DNA of 64,000 nt from an uncultured Actinomycetes bacterium (lineage in GTDB: Bacteria > Actinomycetota > Acidimicrobiia > IMCC26256 > JACDBD01). Location: contig CAVVDV010000005.1 in the NCBI GenBank assembly GCA_963747195.1, positions 601,704 to 665,703 of the forward strand, read 5' to 3'. Position 1 is the stretch's first letter. Every line of letters begins with the position of its first letter. The notes under the pieces were generated by a model that worked only from the letters and a program-made list of their open reading frames with translations, made no database searches and had not been told where the DNA came from. Positions 52,259 through 53,635 of the stretch are shown piece by piece. The translations under genes were made by a program, and so were the position numbers.

Positions 52259-52750
52259 ATGCCCGGCCTCGAAGACCTCTACCGCGAGATCATCCTCGAC
52301 CACTACCGCTCGCCCCGGAACCGCGGCGAGCTCCCGGTCCCCCCGGCCACCAAGGCCGAGGGCTTCAACCCGCTGTGCGGCGACGAGGTCGTCCTCTACC
52401 TCGACATCGATCCCGACACCGAGACCGTCCGCGACGTCAAGATCGACGGGCAGGGCTGCTCGATCAGTCAGGCGTCGACGTCGATGATGAGCTCGGCCGT
52501 GAAGGGGAAGCCGGTCGACGAGGCCCGCAAGCTCATCCGCGCGTTCAAGGCGCTGATGTCCATCCACGAGTCGAAGCTCGAGGGCGAGAGCGACGGCTCC
52601 GACCTCACGGCCGAGCTCGAGGGCGCGCGCCTCGGTGACCTCGAAGCGCTGCAGGGCGTGGTCAAGTTCCCGGTGCGCATCAAGTGCGCCACCCTCGCCT
52701 GGAACACCCTCCAGCAAGGCCTCGACGAACGCGAGTCGGTCGACGCGTAA
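52259..52750 (+). CDS. sufU: SUF system NifU-family protein
   Basis: LYREIILDHY, NPLCGD, GCSISQAS, RIKCATLAW. Confidence 0.95.
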   Translation: MPGLEDLYREIILDHYRSPRNRGELPVPPATKAEGFNPLCGDEVVLYLDIDPDTETVRDVKIDGQGCSISQASTSMMSSAVKGKPVDEARKLIRAFKALMSIHESKLEGESDGSDLTAELEGARLGDLEALQGVVKFPVRIKCATLAWNTLQQGLDERESVDA

Positions 52751-52840
52751 CCCTCGGTCCGCGGACGCGTTGGGTCGGAAACCGGCGCTCGGCGCGGGGT
52801 TTGAGACCCACCGGATCGGGGCCGTGCTGACCCGACCGGG

Positions 52841-53314
52841 TCAGGCGTTGCGGCTGTTTCAGCCGGGGCGGAACGGAGGGAGACCGTCGCCCTCCTCGGA
52901 GACGGCGGCACCGCCGGCTGCCTCGGCGAACCGGTTCCATTCGGCTCGGTCCCAGGACACCACCGCGTCGCGGACGGTGCCGTCCTCGTCGACGCGGAAC
53001 AACGTCGGGACGGTGTCGATGCCGAACGCATCGGACGCGGGATACGGAGCGGTCTCGCTCAGGGTGGTGACCTTCTGCCCGTGCCGCTCGGCGTACGACT
53101 GGATCTCGGGCGGCGCGTCCTCGCCCACCGCGACGACGCGCACCCCGGCTTCGGCCAGCGCCTGCACCTTGGGCGCGGCCATCTGGCAGACGGGGCACGT
53201 GGTCTTGAAGAAGGCCAGAACGACGGGGCCCTCCCGCCACGGGTCGGTGACGGATTCGCCGGTTGCCGCGTCGGGTAGCTGCAGCGAAGGAACGCGATCC
53301 CCGAGGGCGAGCAT
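52841..53314 (-). CDS. TlpA/AhpC-TSA-like thioredoxin-fold protein; probable selenoprotein (UGA at 52861-52859 read as Sec, stop at 52843-52841)
   Basis: FFKTTCPVCQ (CxxC), DTVPTLF cis-Pro loop, C-terminus LPPFRPG-TGA-NSRNA-TGA followed by hairpin TGACCC-GGTC-GGGTCA. Confidence 0.8.
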
Positions 53315-53455
53315 CGTCTTCAGGCTATTCGGGGGGAACGCCCCCGATGACCAGGGGTGACGTCGTTCACACCCTGGATATAAAGGTGACACGGGCATGG
53401 AACGTTGACCGACTACGTTGACTACACGGACGGCCGATTGGGAAGGGGCTGAGAC

Positions 53456-53635
53456 ATGAGCCAGGCGCTGGTGACGATGATCGACTCGGCACTCGAGCAG
53501 TACCGGAGCCGCGACCTCGTCTCGGCGGCCGAGGTGGTCGACTTCCTACTCGACCTGCGTCTTGCCGCGATCAACCCCGACGCAGATCCCCTCGAGCAGC
53601 TGCTCGAGCAGGAGTCCACGCACGCCGGGAACTGA
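53456..53635 (+). CDS. Hypothetical 59-aa acidic protein
   Basis: Purine-rich GGAAGGGG upstream; MSQALVTMIDSALEQYRSRDLVSAAEVVDFLLDLRLAAINPDADPLEQLLEQESTHAGN; high GC3. Confidence 0.7.
   Translation: MSQALVTMIDSALEQYRSRDLVSAAEVVDFLLDLRLAAINPDADPLEQLLEQESTHAGN

Follow-up and report, generated by a model that had tools for sequence, protein, structure and literature searches.

A redoxin of soil bacteria with a probable selenocysteine close to its C-terminus, and the apparently undescribed family to which it belongs

We describe a gene for a small redoxin that very probably encodes a selenoprotein. The gene lies on the minus strand of a 64,000-nucleotide (nt) stretch of DNA from an uncultured Actinomycetes bacterium of the class Acidimicrobiia (contig CAVVDV010000005.1, positions 601,704 to 665,703), which we call the window. 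In our reading, an in-frame UGA at 52861-52859 is decoded as selenocysteine (Sec), residue 152 (U152) of the protein. We favor this reading because the UGA is conserved, the codons that follow it form a coding tail, the hairpin 3' of it covaries, cysteine and Sec correspond among homologues, and the genome holds Sec machinery together with other selenoprotein genes. The protein appears to represent an undescribed selenoprotein family that has an unusual layout and is widespread in soil bacteria.

The open reading frame (ORF) begins with MLALGDR, continues into FFKTTCPVCQ, and has DGLPPFRPG as its last sense residues before TGA. Its start codon is backed by homologues that begin at the same MLxxGD. 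The parts of the gene are listed below; SECIS stands for selenocysteine insertion sequence and MFE for minimum free energy.

52844..53314, minus strand: redoxin coding sequence read through the first UGA, 157 codons (151, Sec, and NSRNA), start ATG at 53314
53186..53197, minus strand: CPVC redox motif (Cys40, Cys43), with C40, P41, and C43 invariant in 82 aligned sequences
52859..52861, minus strand: in-frame UGA, the proposed Sec codon (residue 152); TGA is kept in relatives, and Cys aligns with it in stand-alone and fused homologues
52844..52858, minus strand: five-codon tail NSRNA (AAC AGC CGC AAC GCC) after the Sec codon, conserved as xS(R/K)N
52841..52843, minus strand: terminating UGA, whose three bases open the hairpin stem
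52828..52843, minus strand: SECIS-like hairpin with a 6-bp stem UGACCC/GGGUCA and loop GGUC (52837-52834), conserved in position and covarying in its stem
52821..52854, minus strand: possible lower stem extension (GCCG/CGGC and GC/GC), weak, from the MFE fold of the window sequence only

An earlier note on this DNA had described the order LPPFRPG-TGA-NSRNA-TGA with a hairpin built on the second TGA. That description is accurate in its ORF, its translation, and its inverted repeat (TGACCC-GGTC-GGGTCA, 52843-52828). Contigs from other sources also span the UGA site: one of 676 nt from a rhizosphere DNA run (52664-53338), and two from soil RNA libraries, of 741 nt (at 52600-53299) and 202 nt (at 52826-53027). 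The last is listed twice with identical figures, which probably reflects one data set filed twice. Over 52826-52888, these DNA-run and RNA-library contigs differ from the window in no letter; the RNA-library contigs confirm the bases only, since transcription, ends, and strand are not readable from contigs.

The conservation of the UGA was followed in two sets of relatives. One consists of 121 genomes of the same order as the window organism; the other is a public scan with one genome per species, which returned 596 relatives, the best 80 of which were kept. Together they provide 90 loci, 89 of them located by a motif search, and 85 non-identical sequences were used for codon counts. A near-full-length orthologue is present in 10 of the 121 order genomes (E <= 5e-59, identity 60-99%), two of which are unpublished (G076, locus L028, and G055, locus L031). 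Each of the ten contains exactly 1 TGA, the match extends to query residue 156 or 157, and the DNA reads (R/K)PG-TGA-(N/G/S)SRN(A/G)(H)-TGA. Among the best 80 of the 596, a codon walk meets a single in-frame TGA ahead of the terminating stop in 80/80. These sequences come from Acidimicrobiia, other Actinomycetota, Bryobacterales, Solibacter, Terriglobales, and Acidoferrales, as well as one Chlamydiota and one Binatia metagenome-assembled genome (MAG).

No homologue ends at RPG with a different stop codon: the first stop is TGA in all 89 motif-located loci, and the later one, counted in the 85 sequences, is TAG (43), TGA (38), or TAA (4). The tail after the UGA is 4 codons long in 41 of these sequences, 5 in 6, 6 in 37, and 10 in 1. 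Its composition follows a strict pattern, with Ser at U+2 in 81/85, Arg or Lys at U+3 in 83/85, and Asn at U+4 in 84/85. Coding conservation beyond the UGA is evident in this xS[R/K]N tail, which varies synonymously: Ser is written with six codons (AGC, AGT, TCC, TCT, TCG, and TCA) and Arg/Lys with seven. Because the tail is kept as amino acids, with both AGY and TCN codons for Ser and seven codons for Arg/Lys, the codon comparison indicates that selection acts at the level of the encoded peptide and not of an untranslated element. In the protein alignment of 82 sequences, the invariant columns are F35, C40, P41, C43, V102, P103, G151, and residue 152, and S154 and N156 are conserved at >= 90%.

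Further evidence comes from cysteine at the UGA position. A protein search gave 1460 cluster representatives at 50% identity with E <= 0.001, and the best 150 were analyzed. Within these 150, 92 end in (R/K/Q/H)PG and 17 in (R/K/Q/H)AG, in both cases at the residue that precedes the UGA; Cys occupies the UGA position in 14, 3 of them stand-alone and 11 longer; 26 are fragments or have unrelated ends; and 1 reads W at the site. The stand-alone Cys forms end in PGCGSMN (P0162), PGCRSKN (P0222), and QPGCVAAYL (P0168). A Cys motif of the type PGCxS(K/R)N, which the earlier note had suggested, does exist: PGCGSMN and PGCRSKN represent it in stand-alone proteins, and RPGC(G/A)S occurs in 20 fused paralogues. 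Apart from 3 fragments, the 120 closest database proteins all stop at (R/K)PG (117 entries); the truncated entries carry names such as 'peroxiredoxin' or 'TlpA family protein disulfide reductase'. By comparison of these sequences, the family is probably recorded in databases as proteins cut short at the Sec codon, without what would be their most reactive residue.

Bacterial SECIS elements are stem-loops just 3' of the UGA, with a G in a small apical loop about 16-37 nt away. The window hairpin (52843-52828) occupies nucleotides 16-31 past the first UGA, and its first loop G is the 22nd nucleotide after it; in position, size, and G-rich loop, the predicted element fits these rules. The hairpin was surveyed across relatives by folding 58 nt from each UGA and by a search, in 83 non-redundant sequences, for the best contiguous stem. 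A contiguous stem of >= 6 bp is found in 82% of the 83 sequences and in 19% of 4150 shuffles. The mean stem is 6.6 bp long, vs 4.4 in shuffles and 5.3 in the upstream 60 nt of coding sequence, and the loop starts 20-25 nt past the UGA in 74/83. The 83 sequences contain 50 distinct 5' stem strings, and their loops are mostly GGUC, GGU, GGC, GUC, or xGUGC. A plain MAFFT alignment of 79 segments from the UGA to +42 gave 0 pairs in RNAalifold, the hairpins being out of register, and an Rfam scan of the hairpin matched no family.

Covariation was measured in 21-nt windows anchored on the loop: of 77 non-redundant windows, the 53 with an odd loop were aligned, and the 24 with 4-nt loops were left uncounted. 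In the 53, 82.1% of cells pair, vs 57.1% in shuffles (reached by 0/500) and 28-44% when partners are slid, a percentage biased upward because the windows were picked by a hairpin search. The measures of covariation are less affected by this choice: 83 cells are changed on both sides vs 29.5, the covariation score is 0.501 vs 0.168 (again reached by 0/500 shuffles), and a compensatory change is seen in 8/8 pairs. As judged from these sequences, it is the comparison with relatives that lifts the hairpin above chance.

Two details of the earlier description of the hairpin hold in part. The lower pairing it had raised as possible is present in the MFE fold of the window (GCCG/CGGC plus GC/GC) but is not kept consistently in relatives. 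The second UGA, said to terminate translation from within the SECIS stem, does so only here and in closely related genes; other relatives stop at TAG or TAA, and in a second Actinomycetota clade a TAG lies in or beside the loop. Since the stop of other clades is TAG or TAA and may lie in the loop, the sequences indicate that termination inside the stem is a local feature and not a family-wide one.

The window belongs to a genome of 10 contigs and 3.27 Mb that is 60% complete. Among the genes for Sec decoding that the earlier note had named, selC and selD are clear: the tRNA-Sec scores 67.9 bits and is called SeC with anticodon tca by ARAGORN, and selD scores 400.9 bits. The other two are found in a less tidy state. 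The selA gene (C2:32472-33776) exceeds its cut-off, with a best piece of 302 bits, but is split between frames; directly downstream, selB-like pieces (C2:30662-32433) are likewise split over frames, and each falls under the cut-off. Besides the redoxin, this genome contains three further selenoprotein genes with an in-frame TGA: two UGSC genes and one peroxiredoxin-like gene. The latter (AhpC/TSA-type, C8:~192180-192640) carries its TGA in the active site, RGYS-U-PFC, and is of a known UxxC selenoprotein type; similar single-TGA matches occur in about ten other order genomes. Across the order, selA exceeds its cut-off in 68 of 121 genomes, among them 8 of the 10 with an orthologue of the redoxin, and it is found in 4/5 distant carriers.

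Several observations weigh against Sec decoding and have to be set beside this evidence. Genomes rich in G+C often use TGA as a stop codon, which makes its presence at every site less striking among the Actinomycetota loci. Taken by itself, the window hairpin is no better than chance (-17.2 kcal/mol, z = -1.45, equalled by 16/200 shuffles in a 44-nt MFE fold), and the upward bias in paired cells has been mentioned. Compared with a 95.8%-identical sister genome, the selA gene of this genome contains three 1-nt insertions that spread it across three frames, and selB is broken as well. The distant carrier in which selA is unmatched is the Binatia MAG. Within the order, one carrier genome (G085, 84% complete) has tRNA-Sec and selD and no match to selA or selB. 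Another (G037, 85% complete, 10 contigs) is without selA and without a selB over cut-off, and its best tRNA-Sec scores 45.1 bits vs a threshold of 47. Its TGA-form gene (L032) is at C3:103924-104394, with selD on the same contig and a hairpin loop further out, at 34 nt; in the family of this genome, selA is found in 0/4 sister genomes searched, three of them of the same genus. This exception could reflect mis-binning, a missing region, or a real departure from the pattern. Finally, the relay between Sec and CPVC outlined below is one that we infer from conservation and a confident predicted model only.

These observations leave three alternatives to weigh. The simplest is that the first TGA is an ordinary stop, that the protein ends at RPG, and that the downstream bases are a terminator or an element of the 3' untranslated region. 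Every gene caller ends the protein there, as the 117 of 120 closest entries attest, the hairpin lies where two genes converge, a place at which a terminator is to be expected, and on its own it is unexceptional. This is nevertheless highly improbable. The tail is preserved as amino acids and not as bases, only TGA occurs at the first stop but all three stop codons at the second, homologues place Cys codons at the site, and conservation of the protein motif extends to the residue before the putative stop, the invariant G151. Furthermore, scans for terminators and promoters found nothing, the hairpin having no T-tract, and the gene co-occurs with Sec machinery. An even slighter chance attaches to readthrough of the UGA by other means, namely near-cognate insertion of Trp or Cys, or a reassigned UGA. 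One database protein (P0145) does translate the site as W, yet UGA terminates the same gene in 38/85 sequences and is the stop of ordinary ORFs in the window. In homologues the site is matched by Cys, which commonly stands in for Sec, the covarying hairpin stands at SECIS distance, and Sec machinery is present. The entry in question reads ...FRPGWNSRNA and was presumably called under a code in which TGA is Trp.

The third alternative accepts a selenoprotein family but holds that Sec decoding is broken in the window organism by real frameshifts in selA and selB, such that the product has 151 residues or the gene is being lost. The state of the two genes, three 1-nt insertions over three frames in selA and a split selB, speaks in its favor; still, we consider it very unlikely. 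The breaks are probably assembly errors, judging from the sequences, because the genome reaches the normal size of its relatives in 10 contigs and yet is only 60% complete, the pattern of an indel-ridden assembly. The same conclusion is suggested by a 61%-complete genome (G074) whose selA is similarly fragmented and by a related MAG in which the redoxin gene itself is frameshifted (L062). In addition, all three changes in selA are insertions in a gene otherwise 95.8% identical to its sister, selA is unbroken in five sister genomes of the genus, and the four TGA-containing selenoprotein genes of the window's genome are intact. Sec decoding of the redoxin UGA is in our view the reading that best accommodates the evidence.

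The protein has the marks of a TlpA/ResA-like redoxin: a domain over its curated cut-off, a CxxC motif, and a thioredoxin fold. In Pfam, it matches AhpC-TSA (PF00578) at 50.5 bits (cut-off 26) and Redoxin (PF08534) at 43 bits (cut-off 26.6); its NCBIfam matches are generic thioredoxin-fold models, far under their cut-offs. A profile search against solved structures matched ResA at E 1.6e-18, and the nearest chains in Foldseek are ResA, DsbE, and CcmG, with template modelling (TM) scores of 0.68-0.73; these are generic neighbors, and the fold search returned nothing on the C-terminal tail. An AlphaFold2 model built from the 82-row alignment has a mean predicted local distance difference test (pLDDT) score of 97.4 and a predicted TM (pTM) score of 0.93. 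Confidence stays high to the last residue, at 96 and 94 in the final two blocks, so that an ordered tail is predicted, in which residues 148-149 and 152-153 form short bridges. The redoxin is probably cytoplasmic, since by reading its N-terminus holds no hydrophobic signal or anchor. Membership of the peroxiredoxins (Prx/BCP) was considered and ruled out. The peroxidatic Cys of peroxiredoxins sits in a PxxxTxxC motif; the site here is FFK(T/V)(T/S)CPVC, a CxxC instead, and position -3 lacks Thr; against the NCBIfam thiol peroxidase model the protein reaches 24.4 bits, the cut-off being 140.

These features suggest how the protein might be made and might act. SelB and tRNA-Sec would decode the UGA as U152, directed by a hairpin (52843-52828) that straddles the true stop, and translation would then append NSRNA and stop at the second UGA. 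The tail, DG(L)PxF(R/K)PG-U-xS(R/K)N, may pack on the fold and present the selenolate as an attacking or accepting center. We take Sec152 as the probable reactive center and CPVC as the resolving or recycling pair because the site is CxxC and not the TxxC of peroxiredoxins. The CPVC dithiol would resolve a selenenylsulfide or selenenic acid and would then be re-reduced by an external reductant; peroxide, disulfide, or persulfide are candidate substrates. In animal thioredoxin reductase, a C-terminal Sec arm exchanges with an internal dithiol. By analogy, we propose that the Sec arm of the redoxin serves as a mobile selenol exchanging with its internal dithiol, in what would be a similar three-center relay on a single thioredoxin fold.

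The genes around the redoxin differ from clade to clade, and no neighborhood is common to all. The earlier note had hinted at a connection with the adjacent sufSU genes through the Sec-lyase activity of SufS. In the fetched flanks, sufU lies near the redoxin in 26/31 Acidimicrobiia-type loci and in 0/59 others: the synteny is confined to one class, which rules out a family-wide functional link and leaves the hint without support. Within the window, the redoxin and sufSU genes converge and are therefore not co-transcribed. A survey of the flanks, in which 64 of 102 listed ORFs were scanned, found other recurring neighbors. In Bryobacterales-type loci, the downstream neighbor is a 2x[4Fe-4S] ferredoxin-like gene (16 of the 21 ORFs scanned) and the upstream one is a STAS gene (10/12) or a pyridine-nucleotide disulfide oxidoreductase (3/3); Terriglobales-type loci have a MutY-like gene upstream (6/6); and the second Actinomycetota clade has a ThiS-BNR protein downstream (5/9). 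In three Solibacter-type loci (L090, L094, and L098), a 421-residue pyridine-nucleotide disulfide oxidoreductase is encoded directly upstream on the same strand, at about 1706-2968. It consists of Pyr_redox_2 and a dimerisation domain and is a candidate reductase, or electron donor, for the Sec redoxin. In the window, a 59-residue ORF (53456-53635, plus strand) diverges from the redoxin; it adjoins the redoxin in 15/90 loci, all Acidimicrobiia-type.

A Cys form of the redoxin is part of a larger protein. At 20 order loci (L034-L053), a paralogue of ~480 residues joins a thioredoxin-like domain with CPTC to a second domain of ~350 residues. The first domain ends in G(D)GLPxxRPG-C-(G/A)S(R/K/L), its Cys aligned with the UGA. 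The second has many invariant residues and matches no Pfam or NCBIfam family; its structural neighbors in the ESM Atlas include clusters with the UGSC domain PF24696 (TM 0.87). A UGSC gene follows the fused gene in 19/20 loci. In the window's genome, the fused gene (C2:223281-224702) is paired with a UGSC gene at C2:222749-223207, and a second UGSC gene (C5:105847-106362) is followed by a free-standing form of the unknown domain, with 365 residues (C5:~104736-105830). The two UGSC genes (PF24696; L140 and L141) score 130.5 and 106 bits, with 1 TGA each in the motif D/N-U-GSCTS. The fused form is found in about 43 order genomes, all of them selA-positive except G068 (68% complete), a co-occurrence that serves as a lead only, related genomes not being independent. 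Around the stand-alone Sec gene, the 3 kb on either side contain no UGSC gene and no copy of the unknown domain at any of 90 loci.

It is conceivable, if doubtful, that the stand-alone PG-U-xS(R/K)N redoxin is the selenium-using arm of a larger, undescribed redox system in soil Actinomycetota and Acidobacteriota. The thioredoxin-like module, the unknown domain, and UGSC would then form one selenium-dependent pathway, with U/C-G-S marking the residue handed between them (for example as a selenenylsulfide or persulfide carrier), and the stand-alone form would serve the same partner in trans. The link, as a hypothesis, gives a handle on the UGSC family, which is abundant in ocean metagenomes.

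Published inventories offer no closer counterpart. A C-terminal PG-U-xS(K/R)N on a CxxC redoxin is absent from the 119 prokaryotic selenoprotein families of a May 2026 review, within the accessible part of that source (PMC13188914). The nearest names there are 'Thiol-disulfide isomerase-like' (UxxC), 'Redoxin family' (UxxC), 'VPGUxxT', and 'UGSC-containing' (PMC13188914). Nor is such a family mentioned in the accessible parts of the GOS survey (PMC2398784), the Sargasso Sea paper (PMC1088965), Peng et al. 2016 (PMC5029168), deep-Sep (PMC12013277), or a 2026 Actinomarina preprint. Full-text literature searches returned nothing closer; their scope did not extend to supplementary tables, where the family may be listed. 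When the 82 family members were compared with NCBIfam release 20, generic redoxin models alone were matched, and no model covers the family.

With this family, abundant soil phyla gain a selenoprotein: it occurs in Acidimicrobiia and other Actinomycetota and, among the Acidobacteriota, in Bryobacterales, Solibacter, and Terriglobales. To our knowledge, selenium use in these soil groups is little described. If the proposed reading is true, the combination of a CxxC motif and a separate C-terminal Sec on a small thioredoxin fold provides a compact and testable model of a selenol/dithiol relay.

Comparison with known systems places the family among thioredoxin-fold oxidoreductases and sets it apart from each of them. 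It shares with the TlpA/ResA/CcmG (DsbE)-type oxidoreductases the fold, the CxxC at the start of helix 1, and the invariant V-P (cis-Pro) loop. It differs in having, by reading of its N-terminus, no signal peptide or membrane anchor, and in its extra conserved C-terminal tail with the putative Sec; the NCBIfam ResA, DsbE, and TlpA models score the family far under their cut-offs (29.7 vs 170 bits). A closer candidate is NF041054, the ResA-like WAxxUGC (seleno)protein, which is also TlpA/ResA-like and gives weak matches in 33/82 members (best E 6.6e-12). Judged from the name of that model, its Sec is apparently in the active-site motif, whereas the present family has an intact CP(V/T)C and places Sec ~110 residues downstream of it, with the end of the chain 4-6 residues away in 84/85. 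The window protein is accordingly not a member of NF041054: its active site is CPVC, without U, and the matches are weak.

The thioredoxin-like domain of the fused Cys paralogue is 30-39% identical to the window protein and has the same DTVPT loop and G(D)GLPxxRPG-C motif; it differs in using Cys in place of Sec and in running on into a large second domain, whereas the Sec form stops after xS(R/K)N. The UGSC family (PF24696; NF041046) shares U-G-S with the redoxin (UGSC vs PG-U-G-S-K/R-N) and occurs in the same genomes, where the Cys paralogue is its operon partner. UGSC proteins have a different fold, however, with U in mid-chain of a protein of ~175 residues, and the window protein has no match to PF24696 or NF041046 at E <= 0.01.

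Animal thioredoxin reductase, with its GCUG end, and the bacterial 'UXX-star' and 'KCU-star' proteins also carry Sec a few residues from the C-terminus; the latter two are names in the review's table of bacterial families (PMC13188914). With Sec so near the C-terminus, there is no room for a bacterial SECIS ahead of the stop codon, which it must overlap or follow. In fold and sequence, the redoxin is unrelated to all three, and here the dithiol and the proposed Sec arm are combined on one small thioredoxin-fold domain.

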